DNA from: a phage
Direction: 5' to 3' (one strand)
Length of the DNA stretch: 64,000 bases
Assembly: GCA_024614665.1 (NCBI GenBank)
Contig: GCA_024614665.1_4861.1
Below the pieces are notes generated by a model. The model made no database searches, was not told where the DNA came from, and saw only the letters and a list, made by a program, of their open reading frames with translations. Made by a program: the position numbers and the translations under genes. Shown piece after piece: positions 322 through 48,563 of the stretch (position 1 is its first letter; every line of letters starts with the position of its first letter).

Positions 322-353
322 AAAAAAAGAGGGGCCGAAGCCCCGTCTTTTTA
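322..353. terminator. bidirectional rho-independent terminator
   Basis: GC hairpin GGGGCCGAAGCCCC (332..345) with A-run upstream and T-run downstream on the plus strand, so a U-run follows the hairpin on either strand; abuts stop of the 351..932 gene. Confidence 0.55.
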
Positions 354-932
354 ACACGTCGCGCCAAGTTCCGAACAGGGATCACCATCTTCCCAGTCGA
401 AAGCTGACATGCGTGCCCAGTTAAGTTGAATATCCACTTTATCGATTCGACTCAGTCGTACTGCACGATCTTCATTGGTAGCCCATTGCCAAATCTTATC
501 TTCATCGTACTTCGTCGAAATGCCCGATGTTGCTTCGCGGAAGTGGTCATCGGTACGCATATACGCATTCCCTTTGAACACATCCAACCGCGAAAAGCCG
601 TTCTCATAACCAGTCGCCATACCGTCATTATACAACTTACGATATTCCGGCATGGCAACGAGGAATGGCTGTAAAGCAGCATTGGCGAACTGGAATTCAC
701 CCAACTCTTCGATCTGTCTTACCATCTCCACCGCATCGCTATAACGTAATTTACGTGCGGTACTGAATGTTTCACGGAAACGCTCCAGTGAGATTAAGTC
801 CTGACAATGTTCTTTTACACGGTCAACGAGATCGGGTGCCAGGCTAGACAGCGAAAACGATTCTTTGAATACGCTGAGTGCCCCGCTACCTTCGGTCTGT
901 TTCGTCCACACCGTGCTACCTTGTAGCCACAT
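351..932 (-). CDS. hypothetical protein (193 aa), immediately downstream of the beta-prime-like gene
   Basis: ORF track; 13-nt spacing from upstream stop; followed by terminator; no motif recognised. Confidence 0.5.
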   Translation of the reverse strand: MWLQGSTVWTKQTEGSGALSVFKESFSLSSLAPDLVDRVKEHCQDLISLERFRETFSTARKLRYSDAVEMVRQIEELGEFQFANAALQPFLVAMPEYRKLYNDGMATGYENGFSRLDVFKGNAYMRTDDHFREATSGISTKYDEDKIWQWATNEDRAVRLSRIDKVDIQLNWARMSAFDWEDGDPCSELGATC

Positions 933-945
933 TACAATACTCCTA

Positions 946-1200
946 TTAGCCCATCACCGCTTCCAACGGAATGCCTTCTTCATCGTCCTCATCTGCCTCA
1001 ATAAGGAACTGGTTCTGCATACTGATTAGCTCGTTATGTAAAACCATGCCGTGTTCTACGCGGTCCACATCAGTAGAAGACATAAAGCCGTTATCTGGAC
1101 GGAATTGGAGCGCCAACTTCATCTCAGTTTCATCGACTGGCAAACGTACCTGGAACTGGTCACCATCGAAATCCTGTTTGTCCACCGTACACCGTTTCCG
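946..1200 (-). CDS. RNA polymerase beta-prime-like N-terminal module, exon 2 (catalytic DFDGDQ motif); 5' boundary approximate
   Basis: Translation ..KRCTVDKQDFDGDQFQVRLPVDETEMKLALQ matches the bacterial beta-prime region D ([23 protein letters not shown]); ORF track starts it at a GTG (1185) with no RBS, consistent with an internal exon; acidic C-terminal tail. Confidence 0.65.
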   Translation of the reverse strand, partial: RKRCTVDKQDFDGDQFQVRLPVDETEMKLALQFRPDNGFMSSTDVDRVEHGMVLHNELISMQNQFLIEADEDDEEGIPLEAVMG

Positions 1201-1559
1201 TATACAGCAGGTGTGCTAAGACACCCTCCTTATCTCTCGACAAGGCACAGACTATATCTTCACCATAGCTTACGCCTTAGGTGTTCTCCCACTTCGAAGT
1301 CCACTAGGACCCCTACTCGCATTTCAGCGATAGTCGTTGAACATTCCTCTCACGAGGCTTCGCTGCTGATTACCCATTATCACAACCCTTAGCACTATTG
1401 TTTAGCATAGGTCATCGTATCTGTTGTTTCAGACTTTCGTCCCCATTTCTGGTAGATACGCTTTAGGGTTTCCCAGCAATTCAGGAGAATACACATCGGA
1501 GGTTTCCCGTCCGATGGGGCTCTTTTCGAACCGTTAGCCATCTTTATCACACGGTCAGA
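1201..1559 (-). ncRNA. group I self-splicing intron (no homing-endonuclease ORF); boundaries about +/-25 nt
   Basis: Minus strand carries the canonical core elements in canonical order: P-like GAATTGCTGGGAAACC (1466..1481), Q-like AATCAGCAGCG (1361..1371), R-like GTTCAACGACTA (1331..1342), S-like AAGATATAGTC (1250..1260); interrupts beta-prime homology between region C and DFDGDQ; in-frame stops at 1395..1397 and 1216..1218 inside it. Confidence 0.6.
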
Positions 1560-2897
1560 GATACGCAGCGAACACTGGTTAACATCGGTAACAACTTCGT
1601 CGATGAACAGCGTCTGAATAGACAACTGTACCAGCGTTGGGTTACGTAGCGGTATAACCATGATCCCAAGACCGCCTGGGGATTCACGAATCAGTTCTTT
1701 AAAGATTTCGTCTACAAGCGGGTCATACTGCATTGCCGCTTTTGCGACGATACGTTCACACTGCCGCGACGAATAACCCCGGCGTAGCAGTTTGTTCTCG
1801 ATGTGGGTCGACATCAACCCAACCATCCAACGCCATGGTGCTTTTAACTTCCAGGCATCGTGTGGTTCTGAGATAGGTGAGATGGTTGCACGACCACCGA
1901 ACGGAATATGGGTGGAACCCAATTTCGCACGATAGTCACCCGGTTTACCTTCCATAGACTCACGACGGAAGTCCATGTGGAAGTACGTTAACTGACGGTT
2001 CGCTTTCAAAGCGCGACTAATCAGAAAACGCGGTTCGATCGCTTTACGCCGCGTATAAAGTAACGCGATATTTTTCACCGCATCAATAGCACCCGTGAAC
2101 ACTGGGTCTACCATGACACCACGACGACCTTCCTCAGTAACGATAAGTTTAGAGGAGATTAGCGGTAAGTGTCTTGGGAAGAATGCATGGCGTTGCGTTT
2201 CGAATAGCTCCTTCCATTGTAAACGTAAGCGTTCGCCTTCAGCGGCGTTATGCCGATTAGGTGCGAAGATTTCCTTCCAGGCTTCTGGCGTGGTAAGGAT
2301 GTTAAAGATACTAACGTGGTTATCAACCAGATTGCGCAAGCCACGAACGAAACCATGTTCTTCCAATACACGTTTCACAGCATGTGCGCGTTTACCGTCT
2401 GGTTCTTCTATAAGGTAATACGGGTCAATCATCCACATCATCAAGTCATTACCGCGTTCGATAGTGACCTTGTTACGTTCAAACTTCTTCAACTTGCTAT
2501 TAAAGAAAGCATTGAACATTGCCCAGAATCGTGGGTTGACGAAGTTACCCATTTCATCAGGTGCACGTAACCATACATCGGATTCAATTCGATGTTCAGT
2601 TACAACATAGCCACACGTCGGACACTTACAACCGAGATTGTAACGATGCGCGATCGGTGCCGGACAATCCAAACTACAAATCGGTGCAGAGTTCAGTTCT
2701 TCGTCAACGATTCTGTTCTGTACCATGCGATCGATAAGTTCAGCAACCTCGATCGCATCCCCGTTAACAGCGACATCGTTAATAATAGTGGGTGGTTTAA
2801 TACCTTTGGCAGCAGCTTCTATTTGCAAATCGGACAAATAGTTATCCTGACTAACCAACCGGCCGGATATTCCGTAGAATTTTGGTACCTTTCTCAC
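1560..2897 (-). CDS. RNA polymerase beta-prime-like N-terminal module, exon 1; 3' boundary approximate
   Basis: Cys cluster CSLDCPAPIAHRYNLGCKCPTCG (Zn-finger-like); GKPGDYRAKLGSTHIPFGGRATISP matches region B ([27 protein letters not shown]); VIPLRNPTLVQLSIQTLF matches region C (VLLNRAPTLHRLGIQAF); ORF track extends it to 1395 but the last ~55-65 codons are intronic read-through. Confidence 0.65.
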
Positions 2898-2979
2898 TCT
2901 GTCAACCTCAACAAAAAAAGAGGGAAGGACGGAGGCGTTAGCCCCCGTCCGTTTCCTAACTACTCAGTAACCGATTCGA

Positions 2980-4833
2980 TTACAGTTTGAAGTTGCTCAG
3001 AGACACGCCCAGACCGAAATCGGAACCGCTTGCAGACAGGCCGTTGCCAGACAGCGTGAAGTCTTCCCCACCGTTGTTGAAGAACAGAGAGGTCGCCATC
3101 GTGTTGTAGGCATTTACACCAGTCATAGACCAGGTGCAGTTGTTACGGACGAAGTCCAGCAGGCATTTACCGAAGATCGGGTTGATAGCCATATCCAGAG
3201 ATTCACCGGTAGCTTGCGGTGCTTTGGATGCGAACAGAGAAGCGGCCAGTTTCAGCATGTAGATACGCTGCTGACGCTCGTTCAGTTCACGGTGGCTGTA
3301 GGACTGTGCGTTCAGGTAGCTATAGACGTCGTTCGCGTTATCACCCAGTTTGGTAACAACGGAAATCAGGTCCATATCCTGGAAGCTGCGTTTCTGTGCA
3401 GTACCGGTGTAAACACCGGAAACAGTCGGTACGGCTGCTTTCACGATGTGGCTGCAATGGATGGTACCATTGAAGGCATCGCCCAGCTGTGCTTTCAGTG
3501 CAGAAGCAAATACTGCAGTGAAGCTGGTCGCTGCAACAACTTCGCCGTTCTGATCACGCGGGGACATGGAATTCAGAATAGCGAGCAGCTGTTTCAGAGA
3601 GTTGTCGTAACCGACCGCAATTTCAGACAGCATAGTAGACAGACCACCCAGGCCGTTACCGGCACGATGGCTAACTACCAGTGCTGCTTCACGCGGTGCG
3701 AACATATCCAGGCAACCTTCGATAGCTTCACGGCTACCGTCGATTTTGGATACATCAGGACGAGCGTCAGCACCCCAGGACAGGTATTCTGCCACACGGG
3801 AGAACTTGCGATCTTGTTTGTTCAGGCGTTTCACAAACAGGTCACGCCAGCCACCGATTGCCGCGATTTCTGCAAATGCAGCCAGCAGCAGCAGTTGACG
3901 TTCATACGGTGCCATTGCACCTTCAGTTTGAGAATCGACCAGACTTACTACGATTTCAGCCTGCAGCTGTTTCAGGTCGTAGACGCCGTTAACGACAGGT
4001 TTCTGACCGGTGAAACGCATATTGACGAAACCGGTACCGGATACACGCGGATACACCTGTACCTGATTGGTGTCCAGCAGAGTCGGAGTGGCATCGGTTA
4101 CGTTGCTTGGGCTGTGCTCAACGGTGATTGCGAAATCAGCACGCTGTGCGTGGCCGTTAGCATCCACAACCGCGCCATCTTCCAGCGGCATTACTGAGGC
4201 CTGATAACGGTCATGCTTACGCAGGTTCAGTGTACCCAGGTAGCCTGCGATACGACCGAAGATACCCATCATCATCTGACCCATCAGGGTACGTGCCCAC
4301 TCAGCATCCAGAACTTTACCCAGGTCTGGTACGGAGTTGATGATCATGAAGTTCGCATTGGTCAGACCATGCGCTTCCATGATGTTTTTCTGTACTACTG
4401 CCAGCACGTCTTTGTTGAACAGTTCAGTGATGGTGTAGTAGTCTTCCTGGCCGTTGTTGGTAGTTTCTTTCAGACGCAGAGACTGACCGCGTTCAAAGAA
4501 GATGATACCGTACAGCCAGTGGCCCTGCCATTGGCCTGCGACGTACGCCGCGGAACCCATTTCGTTACCCACGCCGACGATGGTGCCCCAGCGGAATGCG
4601 TTGAGGTATTCGTTGCTTTTCTTCAGCTCATCCAGGAGGTTGGTGAAGTGCATTGCATAAGTGCTGATGTTGCGGATGCCAAATGCGTTATCGAATTGGC
4701 TGACAGTAGAAGTACCCGGCACAGCAGTTTGCACTTTTACAGTCTCGTTGCCCAGACCGCCCAGTGGTGCGGTGTCTTGAGTCTGAGTGTTGTTCTGCTG
4801 AGCGTTGTTGTTAGAGTCAACGATTTTTACCAT
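2980..4833 (-). CDS. 617-aa protein with strong codon bias; candidate major structural or phage-nucleus shell protein (function unassigned)
   Basis: Long ORF with markedly host-optimal codon choice; sits directly upstream of the RNAP beta-prime gene; the long antisense ORFs across it are typical of highly biased genes. Confidence 0.6.
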   Translation of the reverse strand: MVKIVDSNNNAQQNNTQTQDTAPLGGLGNETVKVQTAVPGTSTVSQFDNAFGIRNISTYAMHFTNLLDELKKSNEYLNAFRWGTIVGVGNEMGSAAYVAGQWQGHWLYGIIFFERGQSLRLKETTNNGQEDYYTITELFNKDVLAVVQKNIMEAHGLTNANFMIINSVPDLGKVLDAEWARTLMGQMMMGIFGRIAGYLGTLNLRKHDRYQASVMPLEDGAVVDANGHAQRADFAITVEHSPSNVTDATPTLLDTNQVQVYPRVSGTGFVNMRFTGQKPVVNGVYDLKQLQAEIVVSLVDSQTEGAMAPYERQLLLLAAFAEIAAIGGWRDLFVKRLNKQDRKFSRVAEYLSWGADARPDVSKIDGSREAIEGCLDMFAPREAALVVSHRAGNGLGGLSTMLSEIAVGYDNSLKQLLAILNSMSPRDQNGEVVAATSFTAVFASALKAQLGDAFNGTIHCSHIVKAAVPTVSGVYTGTAQKRSFQDMDLISVVTKLGDNANDVYSYLNAQSYSHRELNERQQRIYMLKLAASLFASKAPQATGESLDMAINPIFGKCLLDFVRNNCTWSMTGVNAYNTMATSLFFNNGGEDFTLSGNGLSASGSDFGLGVSLSNFKL

Positions 4834-17526: not shown

Positions 17527-17606
17527 GGGCGAGCAAACGGACGGATTCGAACCGTCGAAATATCCGATTATGAGTCGGGTGTTAATTCCTCTAACTTCGC
17601 TGCTCT
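17527..17606 (-). pseudogene. tRNA-like element (degenerate): T-arm GACGG-TTCGAAT-CCGTC and anticodon-arm-like CCGA-CUCAUAA-UCGG (CAU), but no pairable acceptor stem
   Basis: Hand folding of minus strand; anticodon loop identical to elongator tRNA-Met loops; acceptor stem cannot be formed and the variable region is 6 nt. Confidence 0.35.
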
Positions 17607-17675
17607 TGCTTTGACCGGTCTCGAACCGGCGACCTTCCTCAAAGAGGTTGCTCTACCTACCTGAGCTACAAAGCC
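17607..17675 (-). pseudogene. tRNA-like element (degenerate): canonical acceptor, D-arm and T-arm but anticodon arm shortened by about 4 nt
   Basis: Minus strand GGCTTTG-TA-GCTCAGGTAGGTAGAGC...GCCGG-TTCGAGA-CCGGT-CAAAGCA; only 13 nt where a 17-nt anticodon arm is expected; G1-A72 mismatch. Confidence 0.35.
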
Positions 17676-18757: not shown

Positions 18758-18833
18758 TGGCGGGGGCACGAGGTTTCGAACCTCGAACCTTCGGTTTTGG
18801 AGACCGGTGCGCTACCAATTGCGCCATACCCCC
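18758..18833 (-). tRNA. tRNA-Trp (anticodon CCA), 76 nt, CCA encoded
   Basis: Hand-folded cloverleaf on minus strand: acceptor GGGGGTA/TGCCCCC, D-arm GCGC-AATTGGTA-GCGC, anticodon arm CCGGT-CUCCAAA-ACCGA (as in E. coli tRNA-Trp except a C27-A43 mismatch), T-arm CGAGG-TTCGAAA-CCTCG, discriminator G, CCA. Confidence 0.8.
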
Positions 18834-24603: not shown

Positions 24604-26711
24604 TTCATCCTCTGTCGTTGGATTAGCTCTTTCAAGCTTTCCATCGATGCGACGTTACGAACGTCAGTGTTGAGTTGAGAGACGAGCGCTTGAATACGAT
24701 TCTTGTACATGAGCTGTTGTACCGGGTCGGCTACAACTTGACTCTGTCTAATCATCGTTTCAATTTGCCCCATCAGTTGTTGTTGCTTTTCTTCTTCCTC
24801 GACTGCAGCCTCTTCATCGAATTCACCTGCCATGCCCCCGAGCATATTGCGGTTGCGCATCATCAGTCGGCTGTTACTTATACCGTAGTGGCCTAAGTTG
24901 TTGCCGAACAGAAGTAACCACATTGCCAGAAGCCAGGATATTACCAGGTCATCGTGACCGGATGCACGGTGGTCTATGCGCCCGTTTCGTTCGACGAGAC
25001 CGAGGATTTGGTCGATCAATTCGCCTGACCGCAGTAAGTCCGCAGAAAGACGCAACGCCGTGGTAAATACTTCACCATACAACTTACGGCGTTTATCCTG
25101 GTCGGTTGAGAAACCGATGTATTTACGGAATTTGTCCCAGAAGCGCTCTGGACTGCCCACAGGGCCACGATGGAACTCTTTGTAAAGTTCATCGTTCCTT
25201 GAGTAATCCTGGGTCACTTTCACGTACAAACGACGATGCAAATCGCGAACCTTAGATTGCAGCTGCAGTATGATGGCATCTGCTACCGAGGAGCCGGTAG
25301 ACCGTCGTTCCAGAATGAGTACCGTGTTCGGATATTCGATCATGAAGTCTGCTAAGTGAATCGCAAACCCGATGACGTTCGTTTCGTTCACGGTGAGCTT
25401 GCCGGCATATTCGGCAGTGACAGAGTTGACGATTGACATGGCAATGGCGTCACGTCCAACGGCTTCGGAGGTATCCAAACCGATGATGTGGCGGTCTTGC
25501 ATTTTAACCAGCATCTGTTCTTCAGTGTAATACCAATCCGTTACGTAGTTGGAAGCAGAGATAATTTTCTGTGCTGCCCGAATACGCGAGGCGTTCATAC
25601 GTCTTGCATCATCGCCTGAGAACGGTTTGTTGTAACCACCGGTTGTCCATTCACCACCGAAGTCACGGCGGATTTGGTCTGGTGTACCTGGGGCGTTCGC
25701 AATCATATCTGCGAGTTCTTCGTCCGTGGTACCGAGTTGGCGGTGGTTGTATTTCACGTAGAACATGATACGTGGAATCTTCGCAGTAGAGCCTTTGCGA
25801 ATCATGTCAATCAGTTGTGCACGAGTCGGAATGTCGATATACCGTTCATCCCACGAAATCCCCGACGTCATCAGGCTGTACATGTACTCACCTTCTTCTG
25901 TCGCCAAATCCCCAGGTGTTGTTGCGAAGACGTTGCCGTATGGAACACCTTCGGCTTCGTTAATACGACGCGCCGCAGTACCCGATGCTAGTGCAGCGGG
26001 GAGGATATGGTGGATGTTGTTGGTAAACGGTCCTTCATCCGAGAACAGGCGTCCGGCTGTGAGTCCACGGCCTACCCCGTTCGCAGCTTCCTTATCGTTT
26101 TGACCGATGCCGGTGATAAGTTTGTTACCCTGCGCTAGACATGCAAACGTCTCACGGTTATCAGGATCGTCCGGATGATGAGGCCAGAGGTAATCCGGTA
26201 ACGCGTTACGCAGTTGTTTCATTTTGTTGATAGTTTCTTCACGCAGGGCAGGACCCTTCGTGATAAGAATCGTACGTGAGTTCTCCAGGAAGCGCATCAG
26301 CCACAATAGCAATGCGGACATCCCGACAGTTTTACCATGCTGACGGAGAAACTCGATAGCGGCGTCGATGTTGTTGAAGAAAATCCAATACATCGAAAAG
26401 TTACCGCGGTCTAGACGAAACGGCATCCCGTTTTTTACACCATCCGCAGGGACACGGACACATTCACGGAAGAAGTACCATGGGTTTTCCGCGCACTCCG
26501 TAACAATCATCGCTTTTTGTTCGAGTGTTAAATCCGGGCTAAATGGATCAACACCACGGAGTTCGGGATTGTGTAATGCCAGGTGGACGTACCAATGCTG
26601 GACACCTAATCCTTGTAGTGTTGTGGCGAACTGAAGGAAGTGCACATTTGGTGTGACATCGTCAACAATCGCGCCAGGATAGTGTCGCCAATCGTTTTTT
26701 CGCAGTATCAT
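24600..26711 (-). CDS. putative terminase large subunit (703 aa)
   Basis: Walker A-like LRQHGKT (compare T4 gp17 SRQLGKT), candidate Walker B RLFSDEG; size and position next to structural genes; not confirmed by search. Confidence 0.4.
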   Translation of the reverse strand: MILRKNDWRHYPGAIVDDVTPNVHFLQFATTLQGLGVQHWYVHLALHNPELRGVDPFSPDLTLEQKAMIVTECAENPWYFFRECVRVPADGVKNGMPFRLDRGNFSMYWIFFNNIDAAIEFLRQHGKTVGMSALLLWLMRFLENSRTILITKGPALREETINKMKQLRNALPDYLWPHHPDDPDNRETFACLAQGNKLITGIGQNDKEAANGVGRGLTAGRLFSDEGPFTNNIHHILPAALASGTAARRINEAEGVPYGNVFATTPGDLATEEGEYMYSLMTSGISWDERYIDIPTRAQLIDMIRKGSTAKIPRIMFYVKYNHRQLGTTDEELADMIANAPGTPDQIRRDFGGEWTTGGYNKPFSGDDARRMNASRIRAAQKIISASNYVTDWYYTEEQMLVKMQDRHIIGLDTSEAVGRDAIAMSIVNSVTAEYAGKLTVNETNVIGFAIHLADFMIEYPNTVLILERRSTGSSVADAIILQLQSKVRDLHRRLYVKVTQDYSRNDELYKEFHRGPVGSPERFWDKFRKYIGFSTDQDKRRKLYGEVFTTALRLSADLLRSGELIDQILGLVERNGRIDHRASGHDDLVISWLLAMWLLLFGNNLGHYGISNSRLMMRNRNMLGGMAGEFDEEAAVEEEEKQQQLMGQIETMIRQSQVVADPVQQLMYKNRIQALVSQLNTDVRNVASMESLKELIQRQRMK

Positions 26712-46949: not shown

Positions 46950-48563
46950 TCATTTCAACAGCGCAGCAGTCGTTCTTTTAATCACGTTGTTAACCGGATT
47001 GATTTTGAAACTGCCGTCTGTTGCAAACCAGTAGTTTTTCGAACTGACCCACTTCCGATTTTCCTCGAGCGCTTCGGTTGACATCGGGCAGTTTGCTGAG
47101 CCGGTGTCACCATCGTAGTCACCACCCAATCCACCTAATCGGGATGGATGTGGTGCCATGGATTCCACAAAGGTTTTCACGGTACGGTCAGGGAAGCTAA
47201 TTGCACCCTTCTCTTTTAACGTGACCCAATCGTCTTCCAGTTCATGCAAATAGAGGGAAGAGGTGGTGGTCTCCAATCTTATGGTCGAGGAGTAAGTCGA
47301 ACCGCGTCCCGTAACCGGATAACGCGTGATGAACGAGAAGTAGTCATTCCAAATATCGTAACCTGACAAATAGAGGAGTTCTGCTAAGCTCAGTCCGCGG
47401 ACAAGCTTACGGTCACGTCCTTCCGGCAGGTCTTCAATATCGTAAAAGATTTTGAAGCTGCGTTTGTCCTGGTAGATTAATGCCACGTAATGGTCCGGAT
47501 CAATCATCAGCGGTTTATGTCGAAGCTCGCGCGCTTCCATTCTGTTGATGAGTGTTTCGATGCCATCGTCGGTAGTGAAAAGGTCATACACCCGCCCGGA
47601 GACTTCCAGGAACTCACGCTTGAGTGTTTTGGTGTTAACGCCGTATAAGTTGCCGTCCCCTGCCCGGATGTTACTGAGGTAACGTTCACGGATGTGGTAT
47701 TGAGCCACAGGCAGTAATGCCTTCAGGGTTTGGTACAAACCGATACGGGTATCCGTTGGACGAATCGCATCTTCGCGACCCATGACCTTGGAACCGGTTG
47801 AGAATGAAGACAGTACGTTACGCGTACCGTTCATTAACTTACGTGACGTCACTTTACGACGTGCAAAACCACCTTTACCGTCTTGGATGTTGAAAAAGTA
47901 CATCCAGATGTCATTAAAGGTTTGTTGGAGCTTCCAGCGAACCGGGTCAGTCAGTTCCGTTCGCGTACTGCGGTCGGGGATTGCACGTGCCAGAGAAATC
48001 AGACGGCGGTAGAGTCCGCCAATCTCTTCTTCTTGGTCGCGGCCATCCTGACGAATGACCAAATCACGTAATCCCGCAGGCAGAACCAGCACATAGCGGC
48101 TGAGACTGACCGGACGGAACTTATTGAAGAAATCGACTGTCTCGTCGCGACGCATTGATTCGTTGCGTCCTGGCGTCAGTTGTTCGTAGTAGCGTAGGAA
48201 GAAGTTGAAGCCGGTGTCTGCACCTTTATCACTGGGCAGAGCCGGCTCGAAATCTTTTTCTTTCTCATTCCAGATAGCGAATCGCTTCCCGGAACAGATT
48301 TCTTCGTACAGCTGTTTCAGCTGGAACAGTGCCAAACAAACGGTCGGCGAAATGATATCCAGTTTGATATCAATGTACGAGAACGTTGAGTCTCGTGCCT
48401 CGCTCCCTGTGAGGCCAAATATTTCAGTTGAATACAGTCCTTCAGGGTGAAAGTTTTTCGTCAGTCCCTGAAAGGTGTCTGTTGTTGTAACTGGTTTTAA
48501 ATGCGACACCAGGGACTTGTTGACGTTTAACAGGTAAAAGTCAACCCAGTTTAGCTTTCTCAC
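46950..48563 (-). CDS. multisubunit RNA polymerase beta-prime-like N-terminal module (537 aa; paralog with DYDGD)
   Basis: [35 protein letters not shown] matches [67 protein letters not shown] matches region B; [13 protein letters not shown] matches region C; GGDYDGD matches NADFDGD; no Zn-finger cysteines. Confidence 0.7.
   Translation of the reverse strand: [537 protein letters not shown]

Follow-up and report, generated by a model that had tools for sequence, protein, structure and literature searches.

The interrupted polymerase gene and the limits of the insert

The subject of this analysis is a 64,000-nucleotide stretch of phage DNA (contig GCA_024614665.1_4861.1, called the window below), in which the gene for the catalytic beta' N-terminal subunit of the non-virion RNA polymerase (nvRNAP) is interrupted by an insert of 356 nucleotides (nt). 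Judged by its sequence matches, the window comes from a giant Salmonella/E. coli phage of the SPN3US group: positions 800..3000 (minus strand) matched 34 Seoulvirus (SPN3US-like) jumbo-phage genomes at 95-99% identity, and a 24-kb stretch elsewhere in the window was 97.5-99.4% identical to the same Seoulvirus group, with no identical record. The comparisons below make us highly confident that the insert, 1529..1174 on the minus strand, is a functional, endonuclease-less group I intron of IA type. The features at the locus are listed here, with aa for amino acids and ORF for open reading frame.

1530..2897, minus strand: exon 1 of the nvRNAP beta' N-terminal subunit gene; 456 codons, GTG start, ends ATG GCT AAC GGT (MANG)
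1174..1529, minus strand: predicted group I intron, IA-type, no ORF; 356 nt; starts UCGAAAAGAG, ends GGACAAACAG
1174, minus strand: terminal guanosine (omegaG), placed by intron-less comparison and group I rules
946..1173, minus strand: exon 2; 75 codons and stop; starts GAT TTC GAT GGT GAC CAG (DFDGDQ)
1395..1529, minus strand: continuation of the exon-1 frame into the intron, 44 codons up to a UAG stop; the SPN3US protein lacks this tail, which lengthens the ORF to 500 aa
1395..2897, minus strand: unspliced ORF of 500 aa
946..1185, minus strand: unspliced ORF of 79 aa, with GTG at 1185
Junction-spanning protein sequence of the predicted spliced product: VIKMANGDFDGDQFQVR

The original prediction, made from the letters alone, had placed a group I intron in this beta-prime gene directly before DFDGDQ, and two lines of evidence bore it out. 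First, the covariance search that had been proposed for 1150..1650 (minus strand) returned a match to the Rfam group I model RF00028 at 1228..1537 (minus strand), covering model positions 1-253 of 253 with 65.5 bits (E 2.2e-14; gathering threshold, 50 bits). Across the window, Rfam at E<=1 gave no second intron or structured RNA, only this match and three tRNAs. Second, exactly 356 nt were absent at the locus in SPN3US, SEGD1, MET_P1_082_240, SPFM2 and SPLA1a, which are 98-99% identical elsewhere. The intron-less allele is an uninterrupted 1,596-nt gene with one 531-aa ORF (SPN3US_0023). An earlier estimate of about 370 nt for the insert is thereby corrected to 356 nt.

The boundaries were mapped by sliding a 356-nt deletion along the window against the intron-less alleles, which left two equally good cuts, one base apart. 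Only one of them gives U at position -1 and G at the intron end, as group I chemistry has it, and the intron was therefore assigned to 1529..1174. Exon 1 ends with U1530 (AUG GCU AAC GGU), the intron ends with G1174 and exon 2 begins at 1173. A terminal G was present in all aligned relatives that reach the 3' splice site. The insert shifts the reading frame (356 mod 3 = 2), in keeping with an earlier description of homology that breaks and resumes in another phase, but the limits given there, about 1575 and 1200, were 45 and 27 nt away from the true ones at 1530 and 1173.

Stop codons occur in all three frames of the intron, and no homing-endonuclease ORF was found in it, as had been predicted. 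A tblastn search of the whole window with four related HNH endonucleases also gave nothing (best E 0.74). The 3' end of the 500-aa ORF had been described as intronic read-through, and this was correct: its last 44 codons (1529..1395) lie in the intron. Two other kinds of insert were considered and rejected. An intein does not agree with the frame shift, the stops in all frames and the lack of a Pfam domain in either ORF (zero matches for the 500-aa and 79-aa ORFs), and a group II intron does not agree with the lack of an ORF and of any Rfam match in the region besides RF00028, even at E<=1.

Removal of the 356 nt yields a 531-aa ORF that reads RVIKMANG^DFDGDQFQV across the junction (^) and is collinear with SPN3US_0023 and phiKZ gp55. 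Exon 1 is collinear with SPN3US_0023 (98.6%), and exon 2 is 99.7% identical to its 3' end. The DFDGDQ of exon 2 carries the catalytic Mg-binding aspartate triad. The two unspliced ORFs fall on adjoining parts of a single profile, phrog_2987 ('RNA polymerase beta subunit'), with residues 8-456 of the 500-aa ORF on profile positions 1-417 and residues 5-64 of the 79-aa ORF on 418-477. The best solved relative of the spliced protein is chain A of the phiKZ nvRNAP (7ogp_A, E 2e-38), labelled PHIKZ055 / PHIKZ056.1, for which the joined protein was deposited. Because this alignment runs gapless through the junction at KMANGDFDGDQ, the interrupted gene was identified as that of the catalytic beta' N-terminal subunit of the nvRNAP. 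By these alignments it is the ortholog of phiKZ gp55 and SPN3US gp23.

The gene is single-copy in the intron-plus genomes, with one place per record. The 537-aa paralog named in the original prediction (46950..48563, minus strand) exists and is the only one in the window. It carries an uninterrupted GGDYDGDTG and no intron at the equivalent site, and it is a distant copy of the virion-polymerase type: presumably the virion RNA polymerase (vRNAP) beta' N-terminal subunit (SPN3US gp42-like), and not a substitute for the interrupted gene. The polymerase that contains the interrupted subunit has been described as responsible for late transcription in work on SPN3US and phiKZ (PMC5105663).

Ribozyme structure and covariation

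The secondary structure was drawn by hand from the Rfam alignment and by inspection and comprises P2-P9, a P5abc-like extension, P7.1, P7.2, P9.0, P9.1 and P9.2. It was evaluated on an alignment of 13 introns from four phage lineages (Seoulvirus, Raoultella/Klebsiella, Vibrio/Photobacterium and phiKZ-type): five from Seoulvirus including the window, those of Proteus phage 7, SaP7, VB_ZK_P1 and phiKp_32, two from Vibrio/Photobacterium phages, and both introns of KTN4. The elements are given in 5' to 3' order of the transcript.

1528..1532, minus strand: P1 5' strand, exon G-3 G-2 U-1 and intron U1 C2; 5' splice site between 1530 and 1529
1518..1522, minus strand: internal guide sequence, P1 3' strand GAGCC; from the minimum-free-energy and centroid folds
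1494..1516, minus strand: P2 hairpin with GAAA tetraloop; compensatory changes in 8/9 pairs
1467..1482, minus strand: element P (J3/4, P4 5' strand, J4/5), GAAUUGCUGGGAAACC; P4 pairs in 100% of cells
1373..1468, minus strand: P5 and P5abc-like extension (P5a, two GAAA-capped hairpins, A-rich bulge GAAACAAC)
1361..1371, minus strand: element Q (P4 3' strand, P6 start), AAUCAGCAGCG; from the Rfam alignment and covariation
1341..1363, minus strand: P6 hairpin with GUGA loop; from the covariation alignment
1331..1342, minus strand: element R (J6/7, P7 5' strand), GUUCAACGACUA; P7 100% paired, one compensatory pair
1296..1330, minus strand: hairpins P7.1 and P7.2, separating P7 from P3'; in the Rfam alignment they appear as an insertion of 37 nt
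1261..1283, minus strand: P8 hairpin
1250..1260, minus strand: element S (J8/7, P7 3' strand), AAGAUAUAGUC
1185..1245, minus strand: P9 (GAGA loop), P9.1 and P9.2, peripheral 3' hairpins; from the fold and the covariation alignment

The P, Q, R and S core strings had been recognized in the original prediction and were confirmed in canonical order on the minus strand, each of them unique in the 64-kb window (1482..1467, 1371..1361, 1342..1331 and 1260..1250). Standard pairs filled 90.2% of the cells of the alignment, compared with 37-44% when the 3' partners were slid by 1-3 columns. Exactly half of the pairs (46/92) showed changes on both sides, and the observed covariation score was attained by 0/500 shuffles. 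Compensatory changes were found in 4/7 pairs of P3, in 5/7 pairs of P5a and in both of the hairpins that make up P7.1/P7.2 (1330..1317 and 1313..1296). The P5abc-like extension is an 85-nt insertion relative to the Rfam consensus.

These pairs were counted on the hand-built structure because plain RNAalifold cannot draw the P3/P7 pseudoknot; in its output a spurious small hairpin replaced P7. On its own, RNAalifold recovered P2, P3, P4, P5, P6, P7.2, P8 and P9.1, and 36/67 of its predicted pairs were compensatory. The fold of 1545..1160 (minus strand) was better than all 100 shuffles (z = -4.2). Hairpins P7.1/P7.2 between P7 and P3' distinguish subgroup IA, to which phage introns usually belong, and by this feature and the established classification the window intron is assigned to it (phage-type, IA2-like).

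The 5' splice site required the largest revision. The original prediction had placed it at 1551 and had paired exon GACCGU (1556..1551) with intron ACGGUU (1534..1529). ACGGU at 1534..1530 is in fact the last five nt of exon 1, followed by the first base of the intron, and the true site is 21 nt downstream, after U1530. The real P1 pairs GGU^UC with GAGCC (1522..1518), and the hairpin GGUUC-GAAAA-GAGCC with a U1530·G1520 wobble was present in both the minimum-free-energy and the centroid fold, as was the P2 hairpin with its GAAA loop. By inspection, the U·G is kept in relatives with covarying neighbours, as GCU/GGC in the Raoultella phage, where position -2 of P1 has undergone a compensatory change, and as GAU/GUC in the Vibrio phage.

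The contacts at the 3' splice site are putative. For P10, the P1 loop GAAAA (1527..1523) could pair with UUUC of exon 2 (1171..1168); in Proteus phage 7 the guide AAAA faces an exon-2 UUUU. For P9.0, C1176-A1175 could pair with U1249-G1248, which was paired in 82% of cells with zero compensatory change.

Alleles, related introns and neighbouring features

Among the Seoulvirus genomes three states of the site were found. The endonuclease-less intron occurs at 96-97% identity in six records (JN03, EC001, Lh1B, SPLA3, SPLA5c and 1252), a 1,405-nt intron occupies the identical site in Proteus phage 7 and SaP7, and most remaining Seoulvirus records, about three quarters of the near-identical genomes, have no intron. 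The 9 nt upstream of the site read GCT AAC GGT in 8/8 intron-plus alleles and GCA AAT GGA in 5/5 intron-minus alleles examined. These three synonymous changes track the presence of the intron perfectly, with polymorphisms farther away shuffled between the classes, and they look like a co-conversion tract. They are also the source of the U at -1 and of the GGU/GCC pairs in P1 and may, in addition, shield the site from the endonuclease.

At the same locus, SPFM1 (LR535901.1 223835..228135) has about 1.1 kb of extra sequence and matches part of the intron (43% coverage at 89% identity). With its fragmented genes and an alignment in about 30 pieces, this record is too noisy for interpretation and probably represents an endonuclease-bearing allele assembled with low accuracy.

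The Proteus phage 7/SaP7 intron shares with that of the window the site, the exon codons GCT AAC GGT^GAT TT, the 3' end GGACAAACAG and a ribozyme core that is 79% identical over intron positions 10-324. It differs in many helices by compensatory changes, and it has a 9-bp P1 extension and an ORF in the P1 loop for a 332-aa, I-HmuI-like protein with HNH_3 and NUMOD1 domains. At the same site (FNA^DFDG), Raoultella VB_ZK_P1 and Klebsiella phiKp_32 have a 71%-identical intron, in VB_ZK_P1 without an endonuclease and in phiKp_32 with one (HNH_3/NUMOD). One codon downstream, NAD^FDGDQ is split by a 66.5-bit intron in Vibrio phage 2 TSL-2019 and Photobacterium phage PDCC-1.

The closest known counterpart of the window intron is found in the phiKZ ortholog, at a distance of one codon. 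Reports of introns in phiKZ gp55 and in further RNA polymerase genes of this group of phages go back to the publication of the phiKZ genome (PMC11512511; PMC10914365). In KTN4 (species Phikzvirus phiKZ), gene 55 contains two introns that score with RF00028, at 87.5 and 74.7 bits. The second of these (74.7 bits) resembles the window intron in the orthologous gene, the catalytic motif it interrupts, P7.1/P7.2, the terminal G and the -1 U. Its core can be aligned to that of the window intron, with partial BLAST similarity at about 76% identity. It differs in lying one codon upstream and in carrying a 334-aa HNH endonuclease in its P1 loop. KTN4 gene 55 has a further intron at RN^PTL, whereas the gene in the window has a single intron without an ORF. 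In the KTN4 record (KU521356.1 48254..55348), gene 55 consists of three exons with an HNH ORF in the P1 loop of each intron; the annotation assigns a polymerase subunit to the first exon only and leaves the others as hypothetical proteins.

Three endonuclease-bearing relatives (Proteus phage 7, phiKp_32 and KTN4) have their ORF in the P1 loop together with a P1 extension of 9-14 bp, and the endonuclease-less versions (window 1518..1532 and the Raoultella phage) have a 5-nt loop exactly at the place of the ORF. This comparison suggests a clean gain or loss of the ORF cassette.

A second insertion was observed in VB_ZK_P1 (PV662128.1 ~26200..26524), and likewise in phiKp_32. There the first intron is followed by a 12-nt mini-exon, GAUUUUGACGGU, that encodes DFDG, and then by an insertion of 313 nt, after which D-T-M-YCYVLSDLKGK resumes. 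The insertion follows a U, ends in G, has a P1-like CGGU^AA/UUGCCG with a U·G wobble and folds with z = -4.2. In VB_ZK_P1 it gave no Rfam match even at E<=10, and Aeromonas jumbo phages have partial homologs of it in stretches that carry no annotation. Possibly it is a group I intron that has diverged too far for the Rfam model to detect.

Two better-known groups of introns offer further comparison. The T4 td, nrdB and sunY introns (IA2) are of IA type with P7.1/P7.2 and lie in conserved codons of an essential enzyme gene (Michel & Westhof classification). The likeness of the window intron to them is one of classification. Their ORFs are in the P6 or P9 loops, unlike those of the relatives of the window intron, which are in P1. 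The T4 introns are also spliced where translation is coupled to transcription, in contrast to phages of the SPN3US type, which transcribe inside a phage nucleus (PMC13282480).

The intron that encodes PhiPA3 gp210 is the other comparison. It is a group I intron in the vRNAP beta gene, and its endonuclease mediates interference competition with phiKZ (Birkholz et al. 2024, PMC11620839). Like the window intron, it lies in an RNA polymerase gene of a chimallivirus and adjoins conserved active-site aspartates, and gp210, an HNH nicking endonuclease, is of the same general kind as the proteins of the sister alleles. It differs in gene and site and in having its endonuclease, which the window intron lacks. 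In our literature search on SPN3US and Seoulvirus introns, the intron reported here was nowhere described.

Other features of the window were as follows.

17532..17675 and 18761..18833, minus strand: three tRNA genes; Rfam 30.6, 38.1 and 65.6 bits
2980..4833, minus strand: 617-aa ORF directly upstream of the polymerase gene
351..932, minus strand: 193-aa ORF that follows the polymerase gene
331..344: GC-rich hairpin GGGGCCGAAGCCCC, with flanking T-runs on both strands

The 617-aa ORF has the position of the 'nuclear shell protein' (chimallin) in Vibrio phage records, and this synteny with the Vibrio phage annotation suggests that it may be chimallin. It had no similarity to PDB chains or to the Vibrio/KTN4 neighbours and matched only phrog_8316, of function unknown. 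The 331..344 hairpin lies shortly after the end of the 193-aa ORF and resembles a terminator for both strands.

Predicted splicing, rival explanations and the insertion hot spot

The mechanism proposed here follows the established group I pathway. The pre-mRNA would fold into P1-P10, and an external guanosine in P7 would attack the phosphodiester after U1530, held as a U·G wobble with G1520 in P1. The freed 3'-OH of exon 1 would then attack after the terminal G1174, which P9.0 and P10 would hold in place. Joining of the exons as AAC GGU^GAU UUC would give KMANGDFDGDQ and a 531-aa subunit with its aspartate triad restored.

Several points weigh against a functional, splicing intron. P1 is short (5 bp), and P10 and P9.0 were placed only by inspection. 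The exon-1 frame enters the ribozyme core for 44 codons before a stop, and in introns of the T4 type such read-through is expected to disturb folding if ribosomes follow closely. Ribosome traffic influences splicing in T4; phages of the SPN3US group have been reported to form a phage nucleus, which encloses their transcription away from ribosomes (review PMC13282480). A further point is the long-read transcriptome of phiKZ, which gave no spliced reads for predicted introns under the conditions used (PMC10914365).

The original prediction had further proposed that the ribozyme gates the transcription capacity of the phage. In such a case splicing would be modulated, for example by the GTP level, translation or the phage nucleus, in a way that times or limits the nvRNAP. 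The intron does lie in an essential, rate-determining gene, and splicing of group I introns in T4 depends on growth state and translation, according to the work of Sandegren and Sjöberg (2007) as cited in PMC10914365. We nevertheless consider regulation of this kind very improbable. The allele is polymorphic in phages that are more than 95% identical, with about three quarters of the near-identical Seoulvirus genomes doing without it, a homing endonuclease is present in the sister alleles, and the site is in a hot spot of mobile introns, where unrelated insertions occupy neighbouring codons of the same motif in other genera. No regulatory feature was found in the sequence.

It is even harder to believe that the gene is truly split, with the 500-aa and 79-aa polypeptides translated separately and assembling without RNA joining. 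This is how GenBank presents it: none of the intron-plus records inspected annotates an intron, and the gene appears as two coding sequences ('beta subunit 1' and 'beta subunit 2'), as one truncated coding sequence or as hypothetical proteins. Division of the RNA polymerase subunits among several polypeptides is already the rule in this group of phages (PMC7598289), and a GTG at 1185 opens the 79-aa ORF. However, no sequence like a Shine-Dalgarno was seen within 5-10 nt of this GTG on reading the sequence, the two polypeptides would be separated within NADFDGD, the invariant active-site loop, and the residues that each ORF has in excess (44 aa and 4 aa) are encoded by the intron and have no counterpart in the protein family. 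The intervening sequence is also a full-scoring ribozyme with covariation, and its removal recreates the uninterrupted allele of the sister phages.

We give equally little credence to a decayed relic that splices poorly and leaves the gene impaired or a pseudogene. Such decay could be read into the lack of a homing endonuclease, the divergence of 3-4% from the other endonuclease-less copies compared with 1-2% in the exons, and the phiKZ transcriptome cited above; against this, P, Q, R, S, omegaG and the U·G wobble are all intact, the differences from relatives are predominantly compensatory, and the gene, which encodes the catalytic subunit of the late-transcription polymerase (PMC5105663), is single-copy in the complete genomes of the plaque-forming phages JN03, EC001, SPLA3, SPLA5c and 1252.

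The intron is thus real, precisely delimited and hitherto unannotated, and its kind is well known. Because its allele is polymorphic, a sister allele bears an endonuclease, and insertions are staggered over neighbouring codons, it is most likely a selfish homing element. It would have lost, or never had, an HNH endonuclease, and it could be mobilised in trans by the endonuclease-bearing sister intron of that site. It would persist because any imprecise deletion would ruin an active site that the phage cannot do without.

The insertion sites found in the NADFDGD stretch are N^A in phiKZ-type phages, G/A^D in the window and in the Raoultella/Klebsiella phages, D^F in the Vibrio phages, and G^D for the second element. 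Among the genera sampled, four positions in one active-site motif are therefore occupied, one codon apart except for the last, and this hot spot is an example of mobile introns gathering at the codons under the strongest constraint.

The window intron leaves the knowledge of group I intron function unchanged. As for annotation, the gene should be given one 531-aa product with its junction at MANG^DFDGDQ, in place of the split or truncated versions in the inspected intron-plus records. A speculative extension, suggested by analogy with PhiPA3 gp210, is that the motif is a contested homing hot spot in which such elements act as weapons or shields between co-infecting nucleus-forming phages, with the window intron as an 'immunity allele'. 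We regard this as unlikely. If it were true, the endonuclease-less intron and the three linked synonymous changes would protect an essential gene from the sister endonuclease, and splicing in a ribosome-free phage nucleus could explain why the 44-codon read-through is tolerated.

The empty, endonuclease-less and endonuclease-bearing sites form a natural allelic series in phages that are more than 95% identical and can be cultured on Salmonella, E. coli or Proteus. This series offers a ready means to measure how introns home, lose their endonucleases and mediate competition in a phage that forms a nucleus.

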